A stretch of DNA of 64,000 bases from Arcobacteraceae bacterium. Lineage in GTDB: Bacteria; Campylobacterota; Campylobacteria; Campylobacterales; Arcobacteraceae. The position numbers and the translations under genes are program-made. Of this stretch, positions 2,089 through 59,193 are shown piece by piece (the first letter of the stretch is position 1; every line of letters begins with the position of its first letter). The DNA lies in NCBI GenBank assembly GCA_965140475.1, contig OZ223243.1, forward strand, positions 29,642 through 93,641. The letters are read 5' to 3'. The notes beneath the pieces were generated by a model that saw only the letters and a program-made list of their open reading frames with translations, was not told the DNA's origin and searched no databases.

Positions 2089-3516
2089 TCATTTAGACTT
2101 TATATAGTGTAATTGTTTGTACCCATCTTTTCTTTTTTTATAGCTACTTAAGGCAAAAGGATTTTGTATATCGAGTATATCTATTGCTAAACAATCACTC
2201 CCTCCTCTTCCTATTCTTCCTAAATATTGAACCAATCTCCCATAATAAGATATTGGAGTTGCAAATATTATAGTATTTAGATGAGGAAAATCTATCCCTT
2301 CTCCAAAATAAGAAGTTGTTGCTATTACTAAAGAGGCATTATTTACTTTTTCCATATTTATCTTTTGATCATTTTTATTTAAACTTCCATGAATCGCAAC
2401 ATGCGGTATTTGTTGAGATTTTAATATCAATTCTAAATTATCAATATGCTCTATTCTATCAGTTAAAAGTAAAATTTTTCTATCTTTGTATTGGATAATT
2501 TGTTCTATGATTACATTATTTCTCTTCTCATCGTTTATCATCTCATTTACTAAGTCTGCAAAATTATCCACATTACTTACAAAATCAGTTTCTACTATTT
2601 TTAATTTATTTGTAAATACTTTTTTACTTTTTACCTCATATGCTATTGAACCTAACTGTTGATAGATAAGTGGTTCCATCCCATCTTTTCTATTTGGTGT
2701 TGCACTCAGTCCTAAGATATATTTTCCACAAAATTGCTTTATAATTTTTTCAAAAGTGAGTGCTGGTATATGGTGACACTCATCAACAATAACAAATGAA
2801 TACTTTTTGATTAATTCTAGATTATTTTTCAAGCTTTGCATAGTTGCCACATCAAGAGAGTTGTTTAATTTATTTTTCCCTTTTCCTAAATATCCAATAT
2901 CTTTTTTTGAATATCCAAAGTAGTTTACAAATCTTTCAATCCATTGATCTAGTAACATATTTTTATTGACAATTACCAGTGTATTTACATTTCTTACCTC
3001 TATCATTTTAGCACCTAAAAGTGTTTTTCCAAAACCTGGAGGTGCAACACATAAAGAGAAATCTTTTTTTGATATTTGCTCTATAGCCTTTTTTTGTTCT
3101 GGTCGTAATTGATAAGTTATTTTAGGAAACACAACCTCTTTATAAAATCTTTTATCAACATAAGTTGTATCAAGGTTATTTTGGGAAAAAAGTTCAATTA
3201 CCCCTCTCATTAAACCTCGCGGAAGAGTTAATGTACCATTTTTATTTTCATAACTTTTAAGATATCTAGGGGTATTATAAATTGGTTTTCGTAAAGCTTG
3301 TAAAGTTTTTATTTGAGGATTTTCAAAGGTTGCTAATTGTTCCAAAGATTCAATTAGCTTTTTTGATAAATGGGATGTTTCTATATATATAGCATCATTT
3401 AATACTATATAACTTTTTATGCTAGATTGTTTTTTATTTTCTAAAAACTCAATTTGCTTCTCTAGCTGTTGTTTTTGTTCATATAAAGTTTTTAGTTCTT
3501 TATCAATATTTTCCAT
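2089..3516 (-). CDS. Superfamily-2 DEAD/DEAH (ResIII-type) helicase with N-terminal coiled coil
   Basis: Walker A APPGFGKT, motif II DECH, SAT motif LSATP, and C-terminal helicase motifs GEGIDFP and QYLGRIGR. Its ATG directly abuts the bactofilin stop (TAGATG). Confidence 0.85.
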   Translation of the reverse strand: MENIDKELKTLYEQKQQLEKQIEFLENKKQSSIKSYIVLNDAIYIETSHLSKKLIESLEQLATFENPQIKTLQALRKPIYNTPRYLKSYENKNGTLTLPRGLMRGVIELFSQNNLDTTYVDKRFYKEVVFPKITYQLRPEQKKAIEQISKKDFSLCVAPPGFGKTLLGAKMIEVRNVNTLVIVNKNMLLDQWIERFVNYFGYSKKDIGYLGKGKNKLNNSLDVATMQSLKNNLELIKKYSFVIVDECHHIPALTFEKIIKQFCGKYILGLSATPNRKDGMEPLIYQQLGSIAYEVKSKKVFTNKLKIVETDFVSNVDNFADLVNEMINDEKRNNVIIEQIIQYKDRKILLLTDRIEHIDNLELILKSQQIPHVAIHGSLNKNDQKINMEKVNNASLVIATTSYFGEGIDFPHLNTIIFATPISYYGRLVQYLGRIGRGGSDCLAIDILDIQNPFALSSYKKRKDGYKQLHYIKSK

Positions 3517-3927
3517 CTATTGTGTAATATGATGTTCGTTAATCTCCAACTTATTATATTTACTTGTCAAAGTAGAGTTTCTCTTTTTACCTTCACCCTC
3601 AAATACACCATTTTGTTCTATTAATAGCTCATCATATTGCATCTTCCCTATTACTTTTCCAAAACCTAAAATATTTACTTGCTCAACATCAAATAAACCA
3701 TCAATAAGACCATTTACTGTTAATACTTTTGATCTAATTTCACCTAAAACTTCACCATTTTTTCCAATTGTAACATCTTGTGTTGCTACAATTATACCTT
3801 CAAATCTACCATCAATAAAAATAGACCCCTTTGTATCAATCATACCTTTAAATGATGTACCACTGTTGATTACTGTTGTGCCATCTTGTTGCTCTGATCG
3901 CTTACTAGCTTTACTAAAGATTCCCAA
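3517..3927 (-). CDS. ccmA: Bactofilin (polymer-forming cytoskeletal protein, CcmA-like)
   Basis: 136 aa with a beta-helical bactofilin-like repeat pattern (GTSFKGMIDTKGSIFIDGRFEG..VTIGKNGEVLGEI). TTG start at 3927 with SD AGGAGG 5 nt upstream. Sits downstream of an M23 peptidase as in the H. pylori csd1-ccmA arrangement. Confidence 0.8.
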   Translation of the reverse strand: MGIFSKASKRSEQQDGTTVINSGTSFKGMIDTKGSIFIDGRFEGIIVATQDVTIGKNGEVLGEIRSKVLTVNGLIDGLFDVEQVNILGFGKVIGKMQYDELLIEQNGVFEGEGKKRNSTLTSKYNKLEINEHHITQ

Positions 3928-4745
3928 TTTACCCTCCTTTGTTTTTCAAATATTTCCTCATAGTTTTTCATATCCCAATCTATAAAATGTTTTGGATCTA
4001 AAACTTTACTTGCATGGATAACTTCGTAGTGTAGATGTGGTCCATTACTTCTTCCACTATTTCCACTTCGTCCTATCACTTGCCCTTTTTTTACAACATC
4101 TCCCACTTTCACATCAGCAAATCGCAAGTGTCCGTATACAGTTTCAAATCCAAAGTTATGAGATACAATTATAACTCTACCAAAAGTACCTTTATTTTTA
4201 TCTTCTACATATCTTATAACCCCATCTGCTGTTACATGGACAGGAGTTCTTCTGGCAGCTCTTAAATCTATACCTTTATGGTATTGTTTTTCATTTGTAA
4301 CAGGATTTGTTCTCCATCCAAACTTTGAAGTTGTTGTACATACTTCCAATGGACATTTATTTGGTATTGTTTGTAACATATAACTTTTTTCAGCAGAAGT
4401 TAACTTTGCCAAGGTTGCTCTTTGTATTAAGTCTGTTGTATCATCAACATTTATACCGATAATATCTTCTATTTTTTGTAGCTCATCACCTAACTCTTGT
4501 ATTTGTGTCACTTTTGCTTCAATTTGATCACTATATAAACTATTCTCTTTTGTTAATGCATCTCTCTCTTTTGAAAGGTCATTTACACTTGTTGCTAATT
4601 GTGATATTGTAAAAAAACTTAAACTTACTATTCCTAATGTTACCAAAATTATCCATAAAATAATTTTCTTTATAATTTTATTAACATTATACGAGCGCGA
4701 CTTATCTACATCAGATATTGTTATGACTAATCTGTCTCTTTTCAT
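3870..4745 (-). CDS. M23/LytM metallopeptidase with TM anchor and coiled coil (Csd1/Csd2/EnvC-like)
   Basis: HKGIDLRA and GPHLHYEV motifs, plus an N-terminal TM segment and coiled coil. ATGA overlap with the folC stop. Confidence 0.85.
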   Translation of the reverse strand: MKRDRLVITISDVDKSRSYNVNKIIKKIILWIILVTLGIVSLSFFTISQLATSVNDLSKERDALTKENSLYSDQIEAKVTQIQELGDELQKIEDIIGINVDDTTDLIQRATLAKLTSAEKSYMLQTIPNKCPLEVCTTTSKFGWRTNPVTNEKQYHKGIDLRAARRTPVHVTADGVIRYVEDKNKGTFGRVIIVSHNFGFETVYGHLRFADVKVGDVVKKGQVIGRSGNSGRSNGPHLHYEVIHASKVLDPKHFIDWDMKNYEEIFEKQRRVNWESLVKLVSDQSNKMAQQ

Positions 4746-6401: not shown

Positions 6402-8873
6402 TTACCCTTTAACTACTAGATTAACTAATTTTTTTGGTACAACTATCTCTTTTATTATCTCTTTACCATCAATCCATTTTTTTGTATTTTCATTTTCTTT
6501 TGCTAGTGATAAGACTTCCTCTTTAGAAGCTTCAGGTGACACTTCTATTTCACCTCTTTTTTTACCATTTACAGTGATTGCTAGAGTAATAGTATCTTGT
6601 ACAAATACCTCTTGCTTTATTTCAATCACTTTATCAAAATTGCTTCTTGCAAATAACATATCACTTAATTCCCAACAGGTGTGAGGAATAATTGGCTCTA
6701 AGATATTTGTTAATATATAATACCCCTCTAACCAAATAGTAGAGTTTTCTTGTTTATTTAAAGCATTTAAAGCTTCCATTGCTGCTGCAATTAGAGTGTT
6801 AAAAGCATAAGTTTTATTCATAACCTCATCAGCTTTTTGTAAAGCTTCATATACTTTTTTTCTAGCTTCTTTTTCATCTTTTGATAAAGTGCTATGTTCA
6901 ATTCTCTCAATCAATGAAGCATTAGCACCTTCACATTTACCTACAGATTCATAAAATCTTCGTATAAATCTAAATGCTCCCTCAACTGCACTATCATTCC
7001 ACTCCAACTCTTTAGTTGGGGGTGCAGCAAACATCATAAATAGTCTTGCTGTATCAGCTCCATATTTTGATACTATCGCATCTGGGTCTACAACATTTCC
7101 TTTTGATTTTGACATCTTTGCACCATCTTTTAAAACCATCCCTTGTGTAAGTAGATTTTTAAATGGTTCAACACTATTTGTATATCCTAATTGATTTAAA
7201 GCTTTTGTAAAAAATCTCGCATATAAAAGGTGTAAAATAGCATGTTCAATCCCACCAATATATTGATCAACATCCATCCAATAATTTGAATTTTCTTTAT
7301 CAATACCAACTTCATTCCATTTTGATGGATTTGTTGCATATCGTAAGAAGTACCAAGAAGATTGCACAAAAGTATCTAAAGTATCTGTTTCTCTTCTTGC
7401 ATCTTTACCACATTTTGGACAAGAACAATTTTTCCATGTTGGGTGATTTTCCAGAGGGTTTCCCTCTCCTGTTATCTCAACATCTTCAGGTAATGCTATT
7501 GGTAAGTTTTCAATTTTTTCAGGAACAATTCCACAATCATCACAATGAACAAATGGAATTGGTGCACCCCAATATCTTTGTCGTGAAACTCCCCAATCTC
7601 TAAGTTTAAAATTAACTTTTTCTCTACCTAAATTATTTTTCTCAAAATGTTCAATAATAGCTTTTTTAGCAGTCACATTAGGCATATCTGTAAAATCATC
7701 ACTATCTACTAAAATTCCCTCTTCTGTGAAAGCCTCTTCAAGATTGATAATACCCATTTTTGTATCTATCACTATTTTGATATCAAGTTTATATTTACTA
7801 GCAAACTCAAAATCTCTTTGGTCATGAGCTGGAACTGCCATAACAGCTCCTCCACCATAACTCGCTAAGACAAAATTTGCAACCCATACTGGAATCTCTT
7901 TGCCAGTTAATGGATGGATTACAGTTATCTCTAAATCTAATCCTTCCTTTTCTTGCGTTGCTCTATCTCTCTCTGTTACTTTTTGCATAGCCTCTATTTG
8001 TGCTATTTTTTCATCACTTAAAAGTTTGTTTTCAACTATATATTTTACTATTGCATGTTCTGGTGCTAAAGCTGTGTAAGTTACCCCATAGATAGTATCT
8101 GGTCTTGTTGTAAATACTTCATATTTTTCAAAATTATTGTTTAATTTCTTTTTTGTATCATCACTTAAATTAAATTCAAACTCTAACCCTGTGCTTCTTC
8201 CTATCCAATTTTCTTGCATAGTTAAAACTTGTGATGGCCATTTTCCCTCTAAAGTTTTAAGGTCATCTAAAAGAGTTTGTGCATATTTTGTAATAGCCAC
8301 ATAATACCCAGGCATCTCTTTTTGTTCAACTGGTGTATCACATCTCCAACAACACCCCTCTTCAACTTGCTCATTTGCTAAAACAGTATGACAAGGTTCA
8401 CACCAGTTTACTGTTGAAGATTTTTGGTATAGAAGTCCCTCTTCGTACATTTTGATTATAAACTCTTGTTCCCATTTTGTATAGAGTTCATCACTAGTTG
8501 CGAACTCTCTTGTTTTAGAAAAAGACAATCCAAGACCTTCAAGTTCTTGTCTCATATAATCAATATTTTCATAAGTCCATTTTTTTGGATGGAGTTTATG
8601 TTTTATCGCTGCATTTTCTGCAGGCATCCCAAAGCTATCCCAACCAATTGGGTGTAATACATTAAAACCATTTTTTCTAAAATGTCTAGCAAAAGTATCA
8701 CCTAAACAATAGTTTCTAACATGTCCCATATGGATTCTTCCACTTGGATATGGGAACATACTTAATATATATTTTTTCTCTTTACCGCAATCTTCATCTA
8801 ATGGTTCAAAACTATTATTAGTAGCCCAAAACTCTTGCCACTTTTTCTCAATATTCTGTGGATTATAATCCAT
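6402..8873 (-). CDS. leuS: Leucine--tRNA ligase
   Basis: 823 aa with the HMGH-type motif ([10 protein letters not shown]) and KMSKS, and typical LeuRS length. Confidence 0.97.
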
Positions 8874-14672: not shown

Positions 14673-15544
14673 ATGGATAATCTATTTGAAAACTTATTAC
14701 ATTTAATTCAAATGCAGTCTTTAAAAGAAGGGATTAATCATACACTAATTCCTTCTGTAAATATTTTTAAATCATCAAATACAACTCAAACTCTACAAAC
14801 TATTTATGAACCTTCATTATTTATAATTATTCAAGGAAAAAAGCTCGTTACAATTAATAATCAAACAATAGAATATGATTCTTCCTCCTATCTTATTTCA
14901 TCTTCTTTTTTACCCGTATCTGGTAAAATTACTCAAGCAAGTGAAAATAAACCTTTTTTATCCCTGCAAATTACTTTTAATTTAAAACAAATATTTGAAA
15001 CTATTGAACAATTCTCTATTAAAGCTAAAAAAACTTCTCATACAAAATTAACCATATTTTCATATAATATAGCGGAAAATTTATTGGATGCGACTTATCG
15101 TTTAGTTAACTCATTAAAAAACCCAGAAGATATAAATGCACTTAGCAATTTATATCTAAAGGAAATTTTGTATAGATTACTTATCTCAAATAATAATACA
15201 GAACTTAAACAACTTGCATTTGTAGAAGGGAATGCTTATAAAGTTTATCAAACTATACTCTATATAAATGATAATTTATTTGATTTAATTTTTATTGAAG
15301 ATTTTGCAAAGTCTGTAAATATGAGTATTTCATCTTTTCATAAACATTTTAAAACAAAAACTCTGTTAGTATAAAGATTCAAAGACTACAAAAAGCAAAA
15401 AGCTTGATGGTGTCAGAGAATATGGATATTACAGGAGCTTCTTTTTCTGTTGGATATCAAAGCTCTTCTCAATTTAGTAGGGAGTACACAAGCTATTTTG
15501 GGATTAGCCCAAGTTTAGATATTAAAAATATTAAACAACAATAG
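14673..15544 (+). pseudogene. AraC-family regulator, frameshifted within the HTH domain
   Basis: The N-terminal AraC ligand-binding-like domain ORF stops at 15374 just after SISSFHKHFK. The second HTH (KIQRLQKAKSLM...GYQSSSQFSREYTSYFGISP) continues in a different frame to TAG 15542-15544. Confidence 0.75.
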
Positions 15545-15659
15545 ATAAAATATTAAATATTACAATATTAAGTAGATTTATTTAACATATATTAGATATT
15601 ATAAACAAATAATTATTAAAAGAGATATTTATATTTAAAAAAAATTTACAAGTTGGCTA

Positions 15660-15953
15660 ATGATGAATAAAAAAACTACTTATCTATTTTATACAATAAT
15701 TTCATTGCTTACTTTATTTTTCATACAAATTATTTATTTACAAAACAACAACTCTATGACAAAAGAGATGAAAGAGGCAAAAATAGAGTTTGTACAACTA
15801 GTGCAACTTCCTGATCTTGCAATCTCTACGGAGGCTACTTATATAAGACATAGAAGTTTAGCTGATATATTTAGTATCTATAAAGATGATGGAAATTTAA
15901 GAGAGTACTTCCCCTCAACATTCACATATTCACATTCACAAGGATACAAATGA
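15660..15953 (+). CDS. Small signal-anchored protein, unknown function; first gene of the ABC operon
   Basis: 97 aa with one N-terminal TM segment. ATGA overlap with the next gene. Confidence 0.5.
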   Translation: MMNKKTTYLFYTIISLLTLFFIQIIYLQNNNSMTKEMKEAKIEFVQLVQLPDLAISTEATYIRHRSLADIFSIYKDDGNLREYFPSTFTYSHSQGYK

Positions 15954-17143
15954 TAAAAGAAAAAATAAATTTATATTTAATTCAATATGCAATAAATGCA
16001 ATATTAAGACAAAAAAGTAAGAATTTTTTTATTCTAAATATTTTTATACTTTTAACTTTTTTATTAACTTCAATTTTTTTTATATCCAATTCTATTAAAT
16101 ATGAATTAAACTCTACTGTTGAAGCCTTACCACAAATCACAGTACAAAAAATAAAAGCTGGAAAATCATACGATATAGATACAAGTGTTGTTGATAATAT
16201 CTTGACCATCACTGGGGTTACTGATGCGGTTGCCAGAGTTTGGGGATATTATTATTTTGAAAATGTAGGAGTAAATTTTACTATTGTTGGATTAGATGCT
16301 TATGAGAATCAGTATAAAAAAAGCTTTGAGAATATTGTAAAAAAATTTGATCTAAATGAGTTAAGTGAAAATTCCTCCATGATAGTTGGACAAGGAGTAT
16401 TTGAATCTCTAAAAAAAGGATATTATTTACAAAATTACTTTAACTTTATTAAACCAGATGGCTCAATCAAAAAGCTTACAATCGCAGGAACATTTAATAG
16501 TGATATACAATTAGAATCAAATGATGTGATAATAATGTCAAAAGAAAATGCAAGAGAAATATTTGATATAAATGAAGATAAAACTACAGATATAGTTGTA
16601 AAAGTAGCAAACCCTGAAGAGATCAGTACAATATCACAAAAAATAAAATTGATGTATCCAGATACTAGAGTTGTAACTTCTGAAGATTTTAAAGTAAGTT
16701 ATCAAAATATTTTTAACTACAAAAGTGGAATATTTTTAACTATATTTATTATCTCATTATTTACTTTTTTTATGATTATTTATGATAAATCAAGTGGCTT
16801 AAGTAGTGAAGAAAAAAGAGAAATAGGAATACTTAAAGCAATAGGATGGACAGTAGATGATGTTTTAAAAGAAAAATTCTATGAAAGTTTTATTATCTCA
16901 TTTTTAGCTTATATGATAGGAATTATATCTGCATTTGCATTTGTTTATTTATTTCAAGCTCCACTTTTAAGAGATGTATTTGTTGGATATAGTGAATTAA
17001 AAACAACTTTTGAGTTGCCTTTTGTATTTGATTTTCAGACTTTATTTTTAGTATTTTTCCTAAGTGTTCCTATTTATATAGCAGCAACTATTATCCCTTC
17101 TTGGAGAACAGCAACACTTGAAACAGACGAGGTTATAAGATGA
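15950..17143 (+). CDS. FtsX/MacB-type ABC transporter permease (4 TM plus large periplasmic domain)
   Basis: 397 aa: TM1, a periplasmic domain of about 220 aa, then three C-terminal TMs containing the EIGILKAIGW motif typical of the FtsX family. Confidence 0.8.
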   Translation: MIKEKINLYLIQYAINAILRQKSKNFFILNIFILLTFLLTSIFFISNSIKYELNSTVEALPQITVQKIKAGKSYDIDTSVVDNILTITGVTDAVARVWGYYYFENVGVNFTIVGLDAYENQYKKSFENIVKKFDLNELSENSSMIVGQGVFESLKKGYYLQNYFNFIKPDGSIKKLTIAGTFNSDIQLESNDVIIMSKENAREIFDINEDKTTDIVVKVANPEEISTISQKIKLMYPDTRVVTSEDFKVSYQNIFNYKSGIFLTIFIISLFTFFMIIYDKSSGLSSEEKREIGILKAIGWTVDDVLKEKFYESFIISFLAYMIGIISAFAFVYLFQAPLLRDVFVGYSELKTTFELPFVFDFQTLFLVFFLSVPIYIAATIIPSWRTATLETDEVIR

Positions 17144-17820
17144 TAAAATTAGAAAATGTCACAAAAATATATGAGATAAATAATGACCATAAAGTAACTG
17201 CATTAGAAAATATAAACTTAGAGTTCAAAGAGGGTGAATTAATAGTACTAAAAGGAGCTAGTGGTAGTGGAAAAAGTACAATTTTATCACTTATTGCTGC
17301 TTTAAGTAAACCAACTACAGGGGAAGTAATAGTTGATAATAATCGAATATCAAAACTTCCAGATAATTTTGCGGCTCTTTATAGAAGAAAAAATATTGGT
17401 TTTATATTCCAAAAATATAATTTGATTCCAACACTAAGTGTAAAAGACAATATACTTTTACCCCTAGTACCAACAAATCCAGATGAAAAAGAAGCACTTA
17501 ATAAATTAAATCAAGTGATGGAAAAATTTGATATAAGCCATAAACAAAATATGATTGTAAGAAATTTATCAGGAGGTGAGCAACAAAGAGTTGCAATAGC
17601 AAGAGCCCATATAAATGATCCAAAAATTATAATTGCAGATGAGCCAACTGCAAATCTTGATGAAAAACTTTCACTTAATTTTATAGAAATTTTACGAAAA
17701 CTAAAACAATCAAATAAAACAATTATTGTAGCTACTCACGATCCATTGTTTTTTAATCTTGATTTTGTAGATAAAATTATAGAGATAAAAAATGGAACTA
17801 TTGGAGATATAGACGAATGA
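17140..17820 (+). CDS. ABC transporter ATP-binding protein (MacB/LolD-like)
   Basis: Walker A GASGSGKST, signature LSGGEQQR, Walker B IIIADEPT. ATGA overlaps on both sides. Confidence 0.92.
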   Translation: MIKLENVTKIYEINNDHKVTALENINLEFKEGELIVLKGASGSGKSTILSLIAALSKPTTGEVIVDNNRISKLPDNFAALYRRKNIGFIFQKYNLIPTLSVKDNILLPLVPTNPDEKEALNKLNQVMEKFDISHKQNMIVRNLSGGEQQRVAIARAHINDPKIIIADEPTANLDEKLSLNFIEILRKLKQSNKTIIVATHDPLFFNLDFVDKIIEIKNGTIGDIDE

Positions 17821-18773
17821 TGTTAGTTCCTGAAGTAATAGCGATATTAATACTTAATCTTATATTTGCTTTTTTTAGCTTAATAGCATTTGTATTAGCT
17901 TTAAGAATATTTTTTAAATGGGATTTAAATGCAACTACAAAACTTCAATATTCACTTGAAAAACAAAGTTTTTTAACAGCAACTATTATTAAATATATCT
18001 TTGCAATCAAATTGCCACTATTTTTATTTTTTATATTTACATTAGATAATATTTCAGATTTACTTACAGGAGCTATGTGTGCAGCAGGAGTAGTTGATGC
18101 AACAGAATATGGAACATATCTTTTTATACTTAAAATTATTAATATTTATCTTTTTGGATTTTGGTTAGTTTTACACTATTTAGATATAAAAAATAAAGAG
18201 TTAAAATATACTAGAATAAAATTTGGATTTTTTATTATTATTTTTTTACTATTTTTAACAGAAATTATATTTGAAGGTATTATGTTTAGTGCAATAGATA
18301 TTGACAAAATGGTAAGTTGTTGTGGTACTTTATATTCAAGTAGTGCTACTTCTTATATATCAAATATCTTTTTGATACAAACTCCTATATTATTATCTTT
18401 GTTTTATGGAAACTTTTTACTAATAGTAATATTTTACTATTTAAGACAAAAAGAGTTTTTTTCATTGGCAAATTTATTCTTCATAATTATCTCAATTATT
18501 AGTCTTATCTCATATTTTGGTACCTATATTTATGAACTACCTACACATCATTGTCCATTTTGTTTTTTACAAAAAGATTATTATTATGTTGGTTATTTCA
18601 TTTATACTCTACTTTTTGTAGGTACTTTTAATGGATTGACTGTTGGATTTATTCATGATAATACAAGAATAAAAAAAGCATATAAACTATCTCTTGTATT
18701 CAATCTTTTATTTTTACTTTTAGTAAGTAGTTACCCTTTAATATATTATATAAAAAATGGTGTTTGGTTATAA
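17817..18773 (+). CDS. Polytopic (about 8 TM) membrane protein with clustered Cys/His motifs, family not recognised
   Basis: 318 aa. Motifs GAMCAAG, VSCCG and THHCPFC all lie in loops opposite the K/R-rich loops, so they are predicted to be periplasmic. Confidence 0.6.
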   Translation: MMLVPEVIAILILNLIFAFFSLIAFVLALRIFFKWDLNATTKLQYSLEKQSFLTATIIKYIFAIKLPLFLFFIFTLDNISDLLTGAMCAAGVVDATEYGTYLFILKIINIYLFGFWLVLHYLDIKNKELKYTRIKFGFFIIIFLLFLTEIIFEGIMFSAIDIDKMVSCCGTLYSSSATSYISNIFLIQTPILLSLFYGNFLLIVIFYYLRQKEFFSLANLFFIIISIISLISYFGTYIYELPTHHCPFCFLQKDYYYVGYFIYTLLFVGTFNGLTVGFIHDNTRIKKAYKLSLVFNLLFLLLVSSYPLIYYIKNGVWL

Positions 18774-18774
18774 T

Positions 18775-18816
18775 TTGATGTTTGTCAATATTTTTATTTT
18801 TATAAAATGGTACAAT
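18775..18816 (+). promoter_or_regulatory. Crp/Fnr-type box TTGATGTTTGTCAA plus -10 TACAAT (class II spacing)
   Basis: Perfect TTGAT-N4-GTCAA at 18775-18788, exactly 22 nt, then TACAAT at 18811-18816. The architecture is identical to the two nos boxes. Confidence 0.65.
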
Positions 18817-18842
18817 ATTAAAAAATAATTGGAGTGTATATA

Positions 18843-19328
18843 ATGCATATTTTAAGTTCTAAGTTTCGTAAAAAATTTGGTTTGTTTATTTTATTGACAG
18901 TATCGGTTAGTTCTTTGTTTGCTAATGATTTAGAAGTGAAACAACAAGATGTATCTCCCGAACAGTTACAGTCTCAAAATGTAGAAATAGCTAAATATGT
19001 TGCAATAGAATTATCAAAAGATTTGCCAAAGGTTGTAGATAAATATACAAAATTTACTTCAATTAAATCTGATAAAACAACACTTATATATACATTTGAA
19101 ATAAATATAGGTTCAAAGAGTGATGAAGCTGTAAAAAAAGAAGATCACAAAAGAATGGAAAAAGCTGTAGTACATGGAGTATGTAGTACTTCTAAAAGAT
19201 TTTTAGAAGCACAAATTGTCATAATTTATAATTATGTTAGTGCAAAATCTAAAGCCAAATTATTTCAATTTGAGATTGACCAAAATAAATGTTTTTTACT
19301 AGAAAAAATGGCATTTGCTAATGATTAG
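18843..19328 (+). CDS. Secreted protein, unknown function (start moved to ATG 18843)
   Basis: GGAG lies 9 nt upstream of ATG 18843. Signal peptide ends ...SVSSLFAND. The mature part has two Cys. No family recognised. Confidence 0.55.
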   Translation: MHILSSKFRKKFGLFILLTVSVSSLFANDLEVKQQDVSPEQLQSQNVEIAKYVAIELSKDLPKVVDKYTKFTSIKSDKTTLIYTFEINIGSKSDEAVKKEDHKRMEKAVVHGVCSTSKRFLEAQIVIIYNYVSAKSKAKLFQFEIDQNKCFLLEKMAFAND

Positions 19329-19779
19329 AAATATTCAATTTAATTTAATATTTTTATTGCTTTTTACTCTTCCTTTGTTATTCATTGGTTGTGAAAAAAA
19401 AGTAGATGATGGTATTACCAAAGTACACTGGGATAGAGATATGTGTGCAAGATGTGTTATGGTTGTTAGTGATAGAAAGAATACAGTTCAAATCAAAAAT
19501 CCCAATACAGGGAAAACATATATGTTTGATGATATTGGCTGCACTATTTTATGGTTTAATGAGGAAGAAATTATGTGGAAAGATAAAGCAGTTATTTGGA
19601 TTACTGATGTTAATAATGGCGAATGGATAGATGCTCGAACTGCATTTTATGATACTGAAAATATAACCCCTATGGCTTACGGATTTTCAGCACATAAAAC
19701 AAAAGATACAATCAAACAAAATCAAGAAATAATTAATTTTGAGGAAGTTTCAAGAAGAGTTTTACTAATCGGGAAATAA
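19315..19779 (+). CDS. NosL-family copper-chaperone-like lipoprotein (paralogue 1)
   Basis: Lipobox LFIGC, CARCVM (CxxCxM) followed by FDDIGC, and a C-terminal AYGFSAH. Clear paralogue of the 21691-22143 product. Confidence 0.75.
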   Translation: MLMIRNIQFNLIFLLLFTLPLLFIGCEKKVDDGITKVHWDRDMCARCVMVVSDRKNTVQIKNPNTGKTYMFDDIGCTILWFNEEEIMWKDKAVIWITDVNNGEWIDARTAFYDTENITPMAYGFSAHKTKDTIKQNQEIINFEEVSRRVLLIGK

Positions 19780-19800: not shown

Positions 19801-20328
19801 TTAATAAAACTTATGAATTTCTTCCATAATATTACTAAATTCTATATCTTCACCTTTTTCTTTCAAAAAGTTTATGAGGTATTTTTCACTTGCATCTATA
19901 CCCTCTTCTTGTTCAATTTTTAAAAGTTCTTTATACAATTCAGATATAACTTCAATTACATGTTTTGATATACTTTTCCTTGAAGCTGTATATCCTATAA
20001 TTTCATGAGTATCTGTATCTCGTCTTGATTCAAATTCTGTAAATATCCAATAATATCTTCCATCTTTTGCTAAGTTTTTTACTACTGCATTTATATTTTT
20101 ACCTGTAGATATAGTTTGCCATAATAATTTAAATACAATTTTTGGCATATCTGGATGTCTAATTATATTATGAGGTTGCCCAAGAAGTTCCTCTTTGCTA
20201 TACCCACATATTTCTATAAAATAATCATTACAAAATGTAATTCTACCTTTTGCATCAGTTTCGCTAACTATATATCTTTTTGGGTCTAATTGAATCTCTT
20301 CATCTAGTACTAGTTTATTATTTTTCAT
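19801..20328 (-). CDS. Stand-alone PAS domain protein, Aer/CetB-like (FAD-type PAS)
   Basis: GRITFCNDYFIEICGYSKEELLGQPHNIIRHPDMPK...KNLAKDGRYYW closely mirrors the Aer PAS signature (NIVRHPDMP). No TM segment or output domain. Confidence 0.8.
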   Translation of the reverse strand: MKNNKLVLDEEIQLDPKRYIVSETDAKGRITFCNDYFIEICGYSKEELLGQPHNIIRHPDMPKIVFKLLWQTISTGKNINAVVKNLAKDGRYYWIFTEFESRRDTDTHEIIGYTASRKSISKHVIEVISELYKELLKIEQEEGIDASEKYLINFLKEKGEDIEFSNIMEEIHKFY

Positions 20329-21690: not shown

Positions 21691-22143
21691 TTAATATCCT
21701 AATATTTGTTTTCTAATTTTTGGATTTGCCATATGCTCACCCCTTAACATTCTCGTTATAACTTCTTCAAACTTAATACACTCACTACACTCATTTTCAT
21801 GGGCAGAAAAACCATACAACATTGGTGTTTTTGCATCTATTGCAAAATTTGCTCTAAAAGGATCTATATATTTTTTTGTATCATTTGAAAAAATTCTAGT
21901 TTCTGTTTTTTTTAAATCTATTTTTTCTTTTTTAGCCCATAAGATCATACACCCTATATCATCAAAATATACTATCTCATCATCGTATTTCATATCAGCC
22001 GTGTGTATATTTGTATCTGGTAATTTCATATTACATTGTGGGCAAATTCTTACTTGCTTCTTATTTTGATTACTATTTGCATTGCATCCAATATATAAAA
22101 ATACAAATAATACAATTAAAAATAAATTAGATAATAGTTTCAT
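21691..22143 (-). CDS. NosL-family copper-chaperone-like lipoprotein (paralogue 2), inserted between nosF and nosY
   Basis: Lipobox LYIGC, CPQCNM followed by FDDIGC, and LYGFSAH. Overlaps the nosF 3' end by 17 nt and ends 2 nt before nosY. Confidence 0.75.
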   Translation of the reverse strand: MKLLSNLFLIVLFVFLYIGCNANSNQNKKQVRICPQCNMKLPDTNIHTADMKYDDEIVYFDDIGCMILWAKKEKIDLKKTETRIFSNDTKKYIDPFRANFAIDAKTPMLYGFSAHENECSECIKFEEVITRMLRGEHMANPKIRKQILGY

Positions 22144-27670: not shown

Positions 27671-27720
27671 ACTATAACTAATTTCGAGAGAATATAACTT
27701 GACAATAATCAAGTTATATT
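27671..27720 (-). promoter_or_regulatory. Crp/Fnr-type box TTGATTATTGTCAA inside a perfect 12-bp-arm palindrome, plus -10 TATAGT
   Basis: The minus strand reads TTGAT-TATT-GTCAA (27712-27699), then 22 nt, then TATAGT (27676-27671). The palindrome AATATAACTTGA/TCAAGTTATATT spans 27691-27720. Confidence 0.6.
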
Positions 27721-30406: not shown

Positions 30407-30448
30407 ATGATATATGAAAAAATAAGAAAATAATTTGACTTAGGGCAA
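30407..30448 (-). promoter_or_regulatory. Candidate Crp/Fnr-dependent nosZ promoter: TTGCCCTAAGTCAA plus -10 TATCAT
   Basis: The minus strand has a half-perfect box at 30448-30435 (right half GTCAA exact, left half TTGCC), then 22 nt, then TATCAT (30412-30407). The AGGAG SD lies 5 nt before the nosZ ATG. Confidence 0.5.
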
Positions 30449-30470: not shown

Positions 30471-31433
30471 TTATTTTTTATGTTGTATTAAGTCCTTTAA
30501 TTTAGATTGTAAATCTTGTAATTTTGAAGCAATATTCATTAATTCTTCTAAAGATTGAATAACGGCATCTTCTTTTTTTGCCATATCAATATCAATCTTT
30601 TTTTTATCATTCATTTCATTTAAAAGTATTAAAAACACCTCAATATTATTTTCAATATTTTCTAAAGAATTTGAAGTATAATCTATTGCAGTATATCCTT
30701 GTTCAATAGAACTATTAATGTTTTGTACCAAACTATTGAAATTGTTTGCTACATTTTGAATATCTTTATTATGAACTTTTATATTAATTGGTTCTAACTC
30801 GCTAATTGTATTCTTTTGGATAATATTATTTGCAGAACTCATAAATTTTTGTATAAAAGAAAGAAGGGGTTTTACTTGTAAAAAAAGATACATAAGAAGA
30901 CTACTTATGAGAATAAATAAAATATATTGAATAATTTTGTATTCTCTTAATGACTCATTAAAATAATCTTTATGTAATTTAATTAAACTATCAAATTCAG
31001 CTGTTAAAGACATATTACTTATATATACTCTTGTGATTGTTTCCTCTAATAATATATTTGTATAAGGCATAATAACTTTTATTTGATTTTTAAATAATAT
31101 AACTTCTGAATGATATTGCTTCCAAAATTCAAATATTTTTTGACTTTGTTTTTTGATTTTTTCAGATTTAATATTCATTAGTATTCTATCTTTTTTATTA
31201 AGATTATTAGTAAAATTTTCCACTGCTTTATCTAGTTGAATACTAGGATGATTTGGGTTTCTATAAATATAAAAAATATTTTTTGATATCTCTTGCGTAT
31301 AATCTTTTTGTTGATTAATTAGTGTTAAGATATTGCTTTTTTGTTTATTCTGTTTATCGATATAATTTACAATTACAACCAATAATAATGATAATAAAAA
31401 AATCATTATCCCAAGTATTTTTATTTTATTCAT
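30471..31433 (-). CDS. Membrane sensor-like protein: TM, periplasmic helical domain, TM, HAMP, short coiled coil, no output domain
   Basis: Two TM segments. HAMP signature after TM2 (KPLL...NKDIQNVANNFNSLV). The periplasmic INQQKDYTQEISK resembles the PilJ/NarX-type N-terminal sensor motif. No H-box, ATPase or MCP hairpin. Confidence 0.6.
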   Translation of the reverse strand: MNKIKILGIMIFLLSLLLVVIVNYIDKQNKQKSNILTLINQQKDYTQEISKNIFYIYRNPNHPSIQLDKAVENFTNNLNKKDRILMNIKSEKIKKQSQKIFEFWKQYHSEVILFKNQIKVIMPYTNILLEETITRVYISNMSLTAEFDSLIKLHKDYFNESLREYKIIQYILFILISSLLMYLFLQVKPLLSFIQKFMSSANNIIQKNTISELEPINIKVHNKDIQNVANNFNSLVQNINSSIEQGYTAIDYTSNSLENIENNIEVFLILLNEMNDKKKIDIDMAKKEDAVIQSLEELMNIASKLQDLQSKLKDLIQHKK

Positions 31434-31444
31434 ATTATATCCCC

Positions 31445-32116
31445 TTAAATTTCTTTATAAATTAAATCTAAATTATACTGATCTGTAATAAAAACCTTGC
31501 CATGATCAATATCTATAACTTCTCTTCGTTTTAAATTATTTAAAACTCTTGATAATGTTGAGGGTCGAATATGTAGCATAAGAGAAATATCTGATCTTTT
31601 TAATTCATTAAATATTTCTAAATCAGTACTTATCATTTTGGCAACTTTAGATACTGCATCATATATAAATTCTCTATTAATAAGCGATTGTAATTTTATA
31701 GATTGTAAAACAATTTGATTAGTAAACTCAGAATTAAGAATATTTTGTTCTAAAAACTCATGTTTGAAGCCTTTATAATCAACAATTAATACTTTTGAAT
31801 CTTTTATAAAAGATATATTTGAAAAAAATTCCAATTCATCATTATTAGTATCTAATATTTCTGAAATCATATTATTTTGATAAATATGAAATAAAAAAAT
31901 TTCATTTTCATATTTATCAATTTTATAGGCTTTTGCTAAACCTTCAACTAAAAAAAACAATTTATTTATTTTAGTTTTTTCATAAGATAAGATATACTCT
32001 CTCTCATAACTTTCAATAGTGGATATTTCACTTAATCTATTAATTTGTTTTTCATTCAAGCTATGAAAAAAATCTAATTTTTGTATTACATTCTTTAAAG
32101 AGAAAGTGTTATCCAT
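31445..32116 (-). CDS. Crp/Fnr-family transcriptional regulator (cysteine-free; Nss/Dnr-like rather than Fe-S FNR)
   Basis: 223 aa with a cNMP-binding-like beta-roll and a C-terminal HTH (RSDISLMLHIRPSTLSRVLNNLKR). The translation contains no Cys. Starts 8 nt after the mnmG stop. Confidence 0.8.
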   Translation of the reverse strand: MDNTFSLKNVIQKLDFFHSLNEKQINRLSEISTIESYEREYILSYEKTKINKLFFLVEGLAKAYKIDKYENEIFLFHIYQNNMISEILDTNNDELEFFSNISFIKDSKVLIVDYKGFKHEFLEQNILNSEFTNQIVLQSIKLQSLINREFIYDAVSKVAKMISTDLEIFNELKRSDISLMLHIRPSTLSRVLNNLKRREVIDIDHGKVFITDQYNLDLIYKEI

Positions 32117-32124
32117 ATTGTTTA

Positions 32125-58179: not shown

Positions 58180-59193
58180 ATGAAAAGTATTGAGATAAAT
58201 AGCCCATACGATATGCATCTACATTTACGAGATAATGATATGTTAAAACTTGTTGCACCGTTGAGTTCAAAAAGTTTTAGTGGAGCTATTGTTATGCCAA
58301 ATCTTGTCCCACCAGTAGATACAAAAGAAGCTGTAATCTCATACAAAAATAGAATATTAGATGCCATAGAGGCAGATGACAACTTCACACCTTTTATGAC
58401 ACTATTTTTTAAACCTTACACAAAAGAATTTTTAGAAGATATTAAAGATGAGATAACTGCGATTAAACTTTATCCAGCAGGAATCACTACAAATAGTGAA
58501 GGTGGAGTTGAATCAATTGATACAGTTGCCCTTGCGCCTACACTAAACGCTATGGCTGAACTTGATATTCCTCTTTGTGTTCATGGAGAAACTAATGGTT
58601 TTGTTATGGATAGAGAAAAGGAGTTTATGAGTGTCTATGAAGCACTTGCTATAGCCTTTCCAAAACTAAAAATAATTATGGAACATATAACAACAAAAGA
58701 TGCCGTAGATCTATTAAAAAAATATGATAATCTTTATGCAACAATTACCTTACACCACCTTTTAATTACCCTTGATGATGTAGCTGGTGGAATGTTACAA
58801 CCTCATCTTTTTTGTAAACCAATAGCCAAAACACCTATTGATAGAGATGCTTTATTAGAAATAGCATTAAGTGGCAATCCTAAAGTGATGTTCGGAAGTG
58901 ACAGTGCACCACATCCACAAGAGGCAAAAGAGAGTTGTGGATGTGCTGCAGGAGTATTTACTGCACCTATAGCTCTGCAAGTGTTAGCACAGATTTTTGA
59001 TGAAAATGGAAAGATAGATAATTTAGAAGCATTTGTAAGTAGCAATGCTTCTAAAATTTATAATTTAAACCCATCGTCAAAATCAATTAAATTAATTCAA
59101 AAAGAGTTTCTTGTACCTACAGCTTATGAAAATAATGGGCTTAAAGTTATCCCAATGTTTAGTGGACAAATAATAAAATGGAGTACTGAATGA
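58180..59193 (+). CDS. pyrC: Dihydroorotase (E. coli-type class II)
   Basis: DMHLHLRD, the carboxylated-Lys region AIKLYPAG, and GSDSAPH. Confidence 0.9.
   Translation: MKSIEINSPYDMHLHLRDNDMLKLVAPLSSKSFSGAIVMPNLVPPVDTKEAVISYKNRILDAIEADDNFTPFMTLFFKPYTKEFLEDIKDEITAIKLYPAGITTNSEGGVESIDTVALAPTLNAMAELDIPLCVHGETNGFVMDREKEFMSVYEALAIAFPKLKIIMEHITTKDAVDLLKKYDNLYATITLHHLLITLDDVAGGMLQPHLFCKPIAKTPIDRDALLEIALSGNPKVMFGSDSAPHPQEAKESCGCAAGVFTAPIALQVLAQIFDENGKIDNLEAFVSSNASKIYNLNPSSKSIKLIQKEFLVPTAYENNGLKVIPMFSGQIIKWSTE

Follow-up and report, generated by a model that had tools for sequence, protein, structure and literature searches.

A predicted class II Crp/Fnr-type promoter in front of a nos-linked secreted protein and NosL-like lipoprotein gene pair in an Arcobacteraceae genome

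The window analyzed here, a 64-kb stretch of Arcobacteraceae DNA with a G+C content of 29.5%, carries a clade II cytochrome-c NosZ cluster in the order nosZ-B-D-G-C1-C2-H-F-Y-L and, separate from it, a two-gene unit that we designate sec161-NosL2 (Table 1). The product of sec161 has a Sec signal peptide (...SSLFA/ND, cleavage between A and ND) and two invariant cysteines, and belongs to a conserved, nos-linked family of the Campylobacterota for which no Pfam entry exists. Profile searches of sec161 against Pfam, NCBIfam and PDB returned nothing significant, and the best score to the Pfam family QSregVF was E = 0.13, reached by one member of the sec161 family. At the level of predicted structure (model pLDDT 84.5), residues ~40 to 160 match PA3611/AspS-like proteins with Foldseek E values of 1.7e-8 to 1.4e-5 and target-normalised TM scores of 0.75 to 0.83, at a sequence identity of 12 to 15%. 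The model hence suggests a small secreted alpha/beta fold in common with PA3611 (PDB 3npd, QSregVF family) and the pilotins AspS and EpsS (4ftf, 6i2v). However, these pilotins are lipoproteins of type II secretion, and sec161 has no lipobox cysteine and a nos context.

Table 1. Features at the sec161-NosL2 promoter and at the nos-related sites of the window
Feature	Position	Strand	Description
mem318	17817..18773	+	318-aa membrane protein; last gene of the sm97-FtsX-ABC-mem318 operon
Crp/Fnr-type box	18775..18788	+	TTGATGTTTGTCAA, 14 bp; centre 18781.5; exact TTGA-N6-TCAA match
Spacer	18789..18810	+	22 nt, AT-rich; ends in TGg
-10 hexamer	18811..18816	+	TACAAT; exactly 22 nt after the box
Predicted transcription start	18822..18824	+	Inferred from geometry
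Ribosome-binding site	18831..18834	+	GGAG; 8 nt before the ATG at 18843
sec161	18843..19328	+	161-aa predicted periplasmic protein
NosL2	19321..19779	+	NosL-like CxxC lipoprotein; lipobox LFIGC
nosB box	27699..27712	-	TTGATTATTGTCAA, perfect; in the nosZ-nosB spacer; N22, then TATAGT at 27676-27671
nosZ box	30435..30448	-	TTGCCCTAAGTCAA; N22, then TATCAT at 30412-30407
o320	30471..31433	-	Two-TM membrane protein; always accompanies the regulator upstream of nosZ
Crp223	31445..32116	-	Crp/Fnr-family regulator (HTH_Crp_2); next to nosZ

The start codon of NosL2 overlaps the stop codon of sec161 (ATGATTAG), which indicates that the two genes form an operon. The ORF at 21691-22143, which lies between nosF and nosY, is a clear paralogue of NosL2 (35% identity, E = 2e-18). 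The original prediction, made from the DNA sequence, had named this second gene NosL, a label that is weakly supported: the score against Pfam NosL (PF05573) is 21.1 bits, below the cut-off of 24. The match to the true NosL of the nos cluster has a BLASTP E value of 0.002. Some sources name NosL2 homologues NosL, and one such homologue has a recorded PF05573 match.

The same prediction had described a TTGAT-N4-GTCAA box that starts 2 nt past the end of the ABC-type operon and is followed by N22 and TACAAT. All of these elements were recovered on inspection of the sequence, with the TAA stop of the preceding ORF at 18771-18773. The box agrees with TTGAT-N4-ATCAA at nine of ten positions and has GTCAA as its right half-site. 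A start at 18823 (an A), 7 nt past the hexamer, would put the box centre at -41.5, in line with the distance originally proposed, and no -35-like hexamer is present 16 to 18 nt upstream of TACAAT. The N22 distance to the -10, the missing -35 element and a centre near the predicted -41.5 together correspond to the geometry of a class II site. In addition, a TG at 18808-18809 turns the hexamer into a canonical extended -10 (TGgTACAAT), a feature that the original prediction did not contain. Extended -10 elements are typical of Campylobacterota promoters. As a counterpoint, a promoter with an extended -10 can fire without an activator.

Since the box begins 2 nt after the operon stop codon and is followed by tatttttattttt, the inverted repeat and T-rich run could also serve to end the ABC-type operon, either by intrinsic termination or as a roadblock of bound protein. 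However, the stem would have just four A/T-rich pairs, a terminator scan of 18760-18830 was empty, and the predicted RNA fold of 18755-18825 (-5.7 kcal/mol, z = +0.62) is no better than that of shuffled sequences. Moreover, in other genomes the box goes with sec161 and not with mem318. On the basis of the empty scan and the fold, this reading was rejected; we regard it as exceedingly improbable. As the scan found no terminator between mem318 and the box, read-through from the ABC-type operon could also express sec161-NosL2.

Two comparable sites lie on the minus strand of the window. The arrangement upstream of nosB (27712-27671) agrees with the original prediction, with a perfect box and TATAGT at N22. 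At the nosZ site (30448-30407), the predicted N22 geometry is present as well, but the match to TTGAT-N4-RTCAA is not: TTGCCCTAAGTCAA departs from TTGAT at two positions and from TTGA-N6-TCAA at one, with the deviation in its left half, and represents a distinct sub-type. An alternative TACAAT is found at N30. The nosZ box of the window corresponds to a TTGACCTTAGTCAA-type box with N22 upstream of nosZ in 22 loci, and a distant relative (L057) carries an identical box followed by N22 and TATTAT. Of 17 loci inspected for the nosZ-nosB spacer, 7 have a comparable box in it. The sec161 and nosB boxes of the window are hybrids that combine a TTGAT left half with a GTCAA right half, the latter being common to the nosZ box.

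A box of this kind could be a chance palindrome in AT-rich DNA, in which case read-through out of the ABC-type operon or a constitutive -10 would account for expression of the gene pair, and random occurrence had already been named as an objection in the original prediction. At the scale of the window, the objection applies to the bare box and not to the composite arrangement. The bare box gave four strand-matches at three sites against 1.07 expected, a count reached by 8 of 100 shuffles. The composite box-N22-TAnnnT is present twice, compared to a mean of 0.0455 in 2,000 dinucleotide shuffles (P(>=2) = 0.0015). As the bare box alone is not significant, the case had to rest on the composite and on conservation. 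An intergenic filter was then applied that allowed one mismatch to TTGAY-N4-RTCAA and required a -10 at N21-23 as well as a gene start no more than 110 nt away. Only three sites passed in the ~5 kb of intergenic DNA of the window, namely the 18775, nosB and nosZ sites, which are exactly those named in the original prediction and all of which flank nos-related units. The remaining perfect box, at 59503, is located within an ORF and is without the -10 geometry.

Homologues of sec161 were found in 56 loci, none of them from Wolinella, and most of these loci show physical linkage of the homologue to a nos cluster. In 23 loci, mostly from Sulfurimonas, the homologue lies immediately upstream of, and co-oriented with, orthologues of Crp223 and o320 and nosZ, heading the gene order sec161-crp-o320-nosZ. 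A box with at most one mismatch and a -10 at N21-23 precedes the sec161 homologue in 23 of 55 related Campylobacterota loci, where ~0.8 would be expected; relative to a background of 0.014 per 200 nt for this geometry, the enrichment at orthologous promoters is roughly 30-fold. The boxes lie 58 to 179 nt before the start codon of the homologue, with 19 of the 23 at -58 to -84. They are followed at 21 to 23 nt, mostly 22, by TAyAAT or TAAAAT, and the sequence of the spacer diverges. The TG before the -10 is conserved in the aligned promoters as well, though it was no selection criterion. From the information-content profile of these promoters, only the unselected TG and the low conservation of the spacer were used, since the sites had been chosen by their box and -10, which makes these columns of the profile partly circular. 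The genes upstream of boxed homologues vary and include mem318, ftsZ, a 96-aa ORF, a putative GGDEF/EAL gene, so called for the look of its C-terminal sequence, and a divergent NosL-like gene. Conservation of the box and -10 upstream of sec161 homologues is independent of the identity of this neighbor.

The sec161-NosL2 pair is kept in ten loci, eight of which have the box. Two Arcobacteraceae loci (L003 and L004) retain the pair with no box in its 160-nt divergent spacer, and in total 32 of the 55 homologous loci are without a box. Among them are 13 Sulfurimonas loci in which a plausible TGTATAAT is present before the sec161 homologue, indicating that the box is not obligatory for expression of the sec161 family. 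These box-less loci are compatible with a chance palindrome, as are the bare-box count and the missing upstream terminator. However, the 701 kb of locus sequence contain 46 perfect TTGAY-N4-RTCAA boxes, and 42 of them fall at three nos-related promoter positions, with 13 before sec161, 23 before nosZ and 6 in the nosZ-nosB spacer. In addition, the enrichment holds despite differing flanks and spacers, the composite is rare by chance within the window, and locus L002 has an unchanged box and -10 around a spacer with substitutions. Taken together, this makes a chance origin very unlikely.

A TTGAT-N4-ATCAA repeat at -41.5 is the pattern of class II FNR/CRP, Anr/Dnr, FnrP/NNR and FixK2 promoters. 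Like these, including the FNR/CRP promoters of E. coli, the 18775 site has a 14-bp inverted repeat at a predicted -41.5 that replaces the -35 and is located 22 nt from the -10. It differs from class II FNR/CRP promoters in its GTCAA right half-site, its extended -10 and the cysteine-free regulator encoded nearby. Within the Campylobacterota, Wolinella succinogenes up-regulates Nap, Nrf and cNos through the Crp/Fnr-family proteins NssA, NssB and NssC (Kern and Simon 2016, summarised in PMC6682613 and PMC8139620). In Nitrosophilus labii, exact TTGA-N6-TCAA boxes begin 48 to 49 nt upstream of the mapped napA, norE and nosB starts (PMC11539149), a distance that equals N22 to the -10 and puts the box centre at -41.5 or -42.5. 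The window shares its phylum and the type and gene order of its nos cluster with both organisms. With N. labii, it also shares the TTGA-N6-TCAA consensus, the 48- to 49-nt distance to the start (predicted here) and separate boxes before nosZ and nosB. In contrast, the sec161-NosL2 target pair lies outside the nos units described for Wolinella and N. labii.

The position of the box could alternatively mark an operator, where a Crp/Fnr protein bound over the -35 region blocks polymerase at a constitutive extended -10 and represses the pair. In favor of this, TGgTACAAT could work without an activator, the box-less homologues still have TGTATAAT promoters, and the N. labii time course was taken to show that one Crp/Fnr gene stands in a negative causal relation to nosZ (PMC11539149). 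We nevertheless consider repression unlikely, as Nss proteins mediate up-regulation in Wolinella and the strict distance of 21 to 23 nt fits face-of-helix contacts with polymerase, which simple occlusion would not need. Moreover, a centre at -41.5 with an exact N22 is the classical activating position for FNR, CRP, Anr/Dnr, NNR and FixK2. Repressing Crp/Fnr sites are usually found across the -10 or the start, or at a greater distance upstream.

The Crp/Fnr-family regulator that the original prediction had reported at 31445-32116, here Crp223, was confirmed by an HTH_Crp_2 match of 29.2 bits (cut-off 27). Its cNMP_binding match is weak (17.2 bits), and this domain is recorded for most Crp223 homologues. 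Crp223 is the only Crp/Fnr gene in the 64-kb window, 12.6 kb from the 18775 box. No box was found before the gene itself, which begins 8 nt after mnmG and has TGTATAAT 7 nt before its ATG. The recognition helix IRPSTLSRVLNNLKR follows the pattern P-S-T-L-S-R (PxTLSR), unlike the E--SR helix of the Dnr type, and has Ser at the position of FNR Glu209, where S, A and E vary across the family. The protein contains zero cysteines and so has no FNR-type [4Fe-4S] O2 sensor; it shows neither the N-terminal Cys cluster and central Cys nor the E--SR helix of FNR proper. As its helix is without the FNR Glu, we regard Crp223 as no more than a candidate for the factor that reads the 18775 box. The adjacent o320 product is a possible sensor partner of Crp223.

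The closest solved structure to Crp223 is CprK of Desulfitobacterium (PDB 3e5u/2h6b, E = 5.5e-4), whose helix VTVSRVL aligns with STLSRVL of Crp223. NssR reads TTAAC-N4-GTTAA and CprK reads TTAAT-N4-ATTAA; unlike the sites of these two regulators, every box here keeps the G of TTGA. That CprK reads TTAAT rather than TTGAT counts against the promoter reading favored below. In lacking the FNR cysteine cluster, Crp223 resembles both CprK and NssR of Campylobacter jejuni (Elvers et al. 2005, as cited in PMC8139620), which are likewise members of the Crp/Fnr family.

The 18775 site could therefore be functional and yet be read by another protein, a Dnr-type Nss paralogue with an E--SR helix that is encoded outside the 64-kb window. 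Crp223 and o320 would then serve the TTGAC/TTGCC-type nosZ box, and the TTGAT-type sec161 and nosB boxes would be part of a wider regulon for N-oxides or anoxia. Several observations point in this direction. Crp223 has no counterpart of the Glu through which FNR contacts the G:C pair of TTGA, and the position is variable in its family. The box sub-types are promoter specific in many genomes, with TTGAC(C)..GTCAA before nosZ in 23 loci; within Sulfurimonas, the difference between TTGAC...GTCAA before nosZ and TTGAT...ATCAA before sec161 is systematic, which hints at more than one regulator. Of the three Nss paralogues in Wolinella, NssA and NssB are described as Dnr-type. In the related genome L025, the gene for a second Crp/Fnr protein, with the helix PETFSR, is located 3.7 kb away from the sec161 homologue. 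On the other hand, the hybrid sec161 and nosB boxes of the window have their right half-site in common with the nosZ box, and Sulfurovum homologues of sec161 are preceded by the nosZ-type cTGACCTTGGTCAA. Crp223 is also the sole Crp/Fnr gene in the window, and sec161 stands in one gene string with its orthologue in 23 loci. Weighing these points, a distant paralogue as the reader of the box is quite plausible, though not the outcome that we would expect.

Irrespective of which paralogue binds, the 18775 site is likely a class II, activator-dependent promoter of the Nss/Dnr type that places sec161-NosL2 in the nos regulon. The membership of the 18843-19779 unit in this regulon, as originally proposed, is supported by comparative sequence evidence: the linkage to nos, the 23 boxed loci among 55, the distribution of perfect boxes (42 of 46) and the spacing mapped in N. 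labii. Under the proposed mechanism, a dimeric Crp/Fnr-superfamily regulator of the Nss/Dnr type would bind the repeat at 18775-18788. Positioned ~41.5 bp upstream of the start, the dimer would recruit RNA polymerase in a class II manner at TGgTACAAT. Transcription from near 18823, the start suggested by the geometry, would yield a short-leadered bicistronic mRNA for periplasmic sec161 and a translationally coupled NosL-like CxxC lipoprotein. As nosZ and nosB are preceded by sites of the same type, with equal spacing to a -10, the pair would switch on together with the N2O-reductase genes. The regulator presumably activates rather than represses, N-oxides or anoxia would be the inducing signal, and the binding paralogue may be Crp223 or an Nss protein of the Dnr type whose gene lies beyond the window.

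The greenhouse gas N2O has a single known biological sink, N2O reductase. Campylobacterota that carry clade II NosZ consume N2O efficiently in sulfidic and hydrothermal environments, and the sensing of N2O and the accessory needs of their cytochrome-c NosZ are only partly known, mostly from Wolinella. In this context, the 18775 box itself adds little, because an Nss/Dnr-type site was to be expected. Its conservation, however, nominates the sec161 and NosL-like lipoprotein genes as members of the nos regulon. The box sub-type at the nosZ promoter is distinct and strongly conserved, and its neighbors are the genes for a cysteine-free regulator and a membrane protein; this arrangement offers a handle on the question of N2O sensing.

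A more far-reaching and tentative reading, which we think rather doubtful in its joint form, combines an accessory nos module with a division of labor between two regulators. In this scenario, sec161 and NosL2 would be co-induced with nosZ and form a previously unrecognised module of clade II NosZ in Campylobacterota other than Wolinella. The PA3611/AspS-fold protein and the CxxC lipoprotein, possibly with the adjacent operon for FtsX, ABC and Cys-rich membrane proteins, would be needed for copper-centre assembly or enzyme stability. The two regulators would be split by box sub-type, with TTGAT..ATCAA before sec161 and nosB and with TTGAC(C)..GTCAA or TTGCC..GTCAA before nosZ. One of them would be Crp223 with o320, acting as a dedicated sensor of N2O or a related signal, and the other a Dnr-type Nss paralogue.

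As for the neighboring ABC-type operon, no box was seen in the region preceding it (15544-15660), so that it is not obviously part of the regulon in this genome. An antisense promoter driven from the 18775 box was considered and set aside, as the nearest minus-strand TATAAT lies at N24, outside the conserved range of 21 to 23 nt. In locus L012, a single box between the homologous ABC-type operon and sec161 faces both ways, with a -10 at N22 on either strand. A similar two-way box is located beside a divergent gene in L025.

Transcription of sec161, which encodes a 161-aa periplasmic protein and is followed by a NosL-like gene (NosL2), appears to depend on a Crp/Fnr-type 14-bp inverted repeat (box) and a -10 hexamer downstream of it. 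The box starts 2 nt past the TAA (18771-18773) of mem318, a 318-aa membrane-protein ORF, and box, 22-nt spacing (N22) and hexamer are all as claimed in the original prediction. In addition, TGg directly precedes TACAAT, yielding a canonical extended -10 element that the original prediction had not mentioned, and no -35-like hexamer was found 16 to 18 nt upstream of TACAAT. A predicted start at 18823 (an A, 7 nt past the hexamer) would put the box centre (18781.5) at -41.5, in agreement with the geometry first proposed. A dimer site in place of the -35 element is the class II arrangement of FNR, CRP, Anr/Dnr, NNR and FixK2. The mechanical ORF list starts sec161 at GTG 18834, but ATG 18843 is favoured because the closest homologues start MHIL. 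As a terminator, the box was rejected (no hairpin; fold z = +0.62).

Boxes and associated promoter elements in the window
Feature	Sequence	Position	Strand	Remarks
sec161 box	TTGATGTTTGTCAA	18775-18788	+	Crp/Fnr type, read from the sequence
sec161 -10 hexamer	TACAAT	18811-18816	+	Exactly 22 nt past the box
Motif ahead of sec161	GGAG	18831-18834	+	8 nt ahead of ATG 18843
nosB box	TTGATTATTGTCAA	27712-27699	-	Followed by N22 and TATAGT
nosZ box	TTGCCCTAAGTCAA	30448-30435	-	Followed by N22 and TATCAT (30412-30407)
Third box site	TTGATGTAAATCAA	59503-59516		Inside ORF 59190-61145; only fully palindromic box

At a window G+C content of 29.5%, the bare 14-mer gives four strand matches at three sites (1.07 expected), a count equalled in 8 of 100 shuffles; the box alone is thus not rare. 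Two copies of box-N22-TAnnnT are present, compared with a mean of 0.0455 over 2,000 dinucleotide-preserving shuffles (P[≥2] = 0.0015; P = 0.0125 when N21-23 is allowed). A scan of the roughly 5 kb of intergenic DNA in the window required no more than one mismatch to TTGAY-N4-RTCAA, a -10 spaced N21-23 from the box and, within 110 nt, the start of a co-oriented gene; exactly three sites passed: 18775(+), 27699(-) and 30435(-). The third bare-box site lacks a -10 at that spacing and probably arose by chance; the ORF around it looks, from its translation, like an ankyrin-repeat protein.

Scanning one genome per species for the 161-aa protein recovered 56 loci, one of which (L001) shows 98% protein identity to the window, itself from an Arcobacteraceae metagenome-assembled genome. 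All family members recovered belong to Campylobacterota, chiefly to Arcobacteraceae, Sulfurimonas and Sulfurovum. At 10 loci, a NosL-like gene comes next after the sec161 homologue, as in the window, usually beside nosL-nosY-nosF. At 23 loci, mostly Sulfurimonas, the homologue lies directly upstream of, and co-oriented with, orthologues of the Crp/Fnr-family gene Crp223 and the two-TM protein gene o320, followed by nosZ-nosB-nosD; at one locus, it stands directly ahead of nosZ. The gene is therefore linked to nos in two different arrangements.

In 23/55 loci, the homologue is preceded by a box that departs from TTGAY-N4-RTCAA at one position at most and is followed at 21 to 23 nt, mostly 22, by TAnnnT. 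Across the loci, the background rate of 0.014 per 200 nt corresponds to approximately 0.8 loci expected; together with the composite P value from the window, this led us to reject chance as the origin of the box. Box starts lie 58 to 179 nt ahead of the start codon, between -58 and -84 in 19 of the 23 loci, with outliers in L012 (-179) and in L028, L029 and L037 (-114). The box-aligned spacers are unrelated between lineages, and the TG just ahead of the -10 is conserved among the aligned promoters, though it was no selection criterion. Upstream of the box, the window and its two close relatives have mem318; other loci have ftsZ (Pfam-confirmed in L006), a 96-aa ORF or a divergent NosL-like gene there; judging by terminal sequences, further neighbours resemble a GGDEF/EAL protein and mnmA. 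Since these neighbours vary by lineage, the box goes with sec161 rather than with the ABC-type operon's 3' end. It is present in 8/10 loci that keep the sec161-NosL-like pair, the exceptions being L003 and L004, and absent from 13 Sulfurimonas loci with the homologue after ftsZ, which have the extended -10 only. The box is thus frequent, not universal, in the family.

The 701 kb of loci hold 46 perfect TTGAY-N4-RTCAA boxes, 42 of them before sec161 (13), before nosZ (23) or in the nosZ-nosB spacer (6), with 4 elsewhere. Along with the nos linkage and the conserved boxes, this distribution supports the proposal that the 18843-19779 unit belongs to the nos regulon. In both L012 (2969-2982) and L025 (7885-7898), -10-like hexamers flank one box at N22, one on each strand, which suggests one dimer site common to two divergent class II promoters; in L012, the hexamers point towards the sec161 homologue and, in the other direction, a divergent NosL-like/ABC operon. 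Separately, a conserved one-mismatch box, TTGATAAAGATTAA, with N23 and TATGAT lies on the (-) strand of L006 (3539), L027 (3589) and L030 (3807), 42 to 73 nt before a gene. In L006, the gene encodes a class-III aminotransferase and resembles hemL; it may be another member of the regulon, tied to haem supply.

The same box-N22-hexamer geometry had been proposed for nosB and nosZ. It is exact at nosB and real at nosZ, where, however, the box is a distinct sub-type with a left half departing from TTGAT. A TTGACCTTAGTCAA-type box, N22 and TAnnAT were found in 22/22 loci whose nosZ upstream region was inspected. The Arcobacteraceae relative L057, whose regulator is just 60% identical, carries the identical TTGCCCTAAGTCAA (7468-7481) with N22 and TATTAT, so the deviant left half is a conserved variant and not decay. 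The nosZ box is TTGACCTTAGTCAA in Sulfurimonas, with its central bases also conserved, and TTGCCCTAAGTCAA in two Arcobacteraceae; both sub-types are unlike the TTGAT..ATCAA boxes that precede the sec161 homologue within the same genomes. In Sulfurimonas loci (e.g., L009, L010 and L020), the nosZ -10 is followed, about 5 to 20 nt on, by a conserved ATCATTTGAGTAT-like element, which could be a leader or second operator; the window has tatcattttacaatcacttgaa at this position.

In Nitrosophilus labii, where starts were mapped by RNA-seq coverage, exact TTGA-N6-TCAA boxes begin 48 to 49 nt upstream of the napA, norE and nosB starts (PMC11539149). The window shares this box-to-start geometry (18775 + 48 = 18823). 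For Wolinella, two reports describe the Crp/Fnr-family proteins NssA, NssB and NssC as mediating Nap, Nrf and cNos up-regulation, with nitrate, NO and N2O as the respective signals (PMC6682613, PMC8139620). Given the class II geometry and both precedents, activator-dependent transcription of the bicistronic unit, coordinated with nos, is the best explanation and in our judgement a probable one. N22 would set the dimer site where it stands in for the -35 element, and the activator would drive sec161 and the NosL-like gene in step with nos. We infer the start site, direction of regulation and signal of this promoter. The box could also be a repressor site, since an extended -10 can work activator-independently and there were hints of a negative relation in N. 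labii (PMC11539149), but activation is favoured by the Wolinella genetics and by conservation of the -41.5 geometry. Read-through from the upstream ABC-type operon is likewise possible and compatible with an extra regulated internal promoter. Sites of this type and geometry, and their occurrence ahead of nosZ and nosB in Campylobacterota, have already been described; new are one more probable regulon member and an uncharacterised family, tightly tied to nos and frequently preceded by the box, which is useful rather than surprising to a specialist. A more novel reading is possible, though less likely than not: the pair would form part of a so far unrecognised accessory module of cNosZ, and each of two regulators would serve its own box sub-type.

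As predicted, ORF 31445-32116 (Crp223) encodes a Crp/Fnr-family protein, with HTH_Crp_2 above threshold and a weak cNMP_binding match; it is the sole such protein encoded in the window, and its gene is flanked by mnmG and o320, which precedes nosZ. Its sequence contains no cysteine, and it is therefore no FNR-type oxygen sensor. The recognition helix reads I-R-P-S-T-L-S-R-V-L; across 22 homologues, its P, T, L, S and R do not vary, and the position equivalent to FNR Glu209 is S, A or E; the closest solved structure is CprK (E = 5.5e-4). If the 18775 site is functional, a Crp/Fnr paralogue encoded outside the window may read it instead, a reading we hold to be somewhat less probable than its converse. 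It draws on the systematic difference in Sulfurimonas between TTGAC..GTCAA before nosZ and TTGAT..ATCAA before the sec161 homologue, and on L025, where a second Crp/Fnr protein (3509-4216, -) with a Dnr/FNR-like P-E-T-F-S-R helix (LTPETFSRV) is encoded 3.7 kb from the homologue, between genes that look like sirohaem/precorrin biosynthesis genes. However, the window's three boxes have the GTCAA half-site in common, and a nosZ-type box precedes the homologue in Sulfurovum. No box was found upstream of Crp223; TGTATAAT lies at 32114-32121 (-), inside the mnmG 3' end and just 7 nt ahead of the Crp223 ATG. The Crp223 transcript may be nearly leaderless, or the gene may be co-transcribed with mnmG. 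The 320-aa product of o320 (30471-31433, -) has two TM segments, a periplasmic helical domain of about 140 aa and a cytoplasmic coiled coil, and matches no Pfam family. Its gene always lies between a Crp223-type regulator and nosZ (window, 23 sec161-crp loci, L057 and L059), making it a candidate membrane sensor partner of the cysteine-free regulator.

A Sec signal peptide (SSLFA|NDLEV) and two invariant cysteines, but no lipobox, are present in the sec161 product, which matched no Pfam or NCBIfam family. Its AlphaFold2 model (21 sequences; pLDDT 84.5, >90 for residues ~40-155) resembles PA3611 (PDB 3npd; Foldseek E 1.7e-8, target-normalised TM 0.82) and the type II secretion pilotins EpsS (6i2v; 1.3e-6, 0.83) and AspS (4ftf; 1.4e-5, 0.75); as sequence identity is just 12 to 15%, the likeness is one of fold, not of family membership. 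For the second gene, the most likely start is ATG 19321, which overlaps the sec161 stop (ATGATTAG). It encodes a lipoprotein (lipobox LFIGC) with motifs MCARCVM and DDIGC that scores 21.1 bits against Pfam NosL, below the cut-off of 24, and bears only a faint resemblance to the true NosL of the cluster (E = 0.002). Clearly paralogous to it (35% identity, E = 2e-18) is the product of the 150-aa ORF located between nosF and nosY (21691-22143, -); C-x-x-C-x-M and FDDIGC motifs occur in both lipoproteins, whose relationship to canonical NosL is faint. The family of the second gene is large and well conserved, with members called NosL in some sources.

Upstream, mem318 ends a run of four overlapping genes (15660-18773, +) encoding a 97-aa ORF, an FtsX-type (FtsX/MacB-like) permease, an ABC ATPase and the 318-aa membrane protein, which has HHCPFC and CCG motifs and no Pfam match. 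This operon is also nos-linked in L003, L004, L012, L014 and L035, often with NosL-like genes at its head, and may be a second nos accessory transport system. An AraC-family gene (14673-15543, +) seems split: its ORF ends at 15374, and the C-terminal HTH (VGYQSSSQFSREYTSYFGISPS) runs on in another frame to 15543, consistent with a frameshift, pseudogene or assembly error. At the nos cluster end beside nosL, a gene for a 175-aa stand-alone PAS-domain protein (19801-20328, -), conserved in L001, L002, L025 and L040, is oriented towards the box-driven unit, from which just 21 nt separate it.
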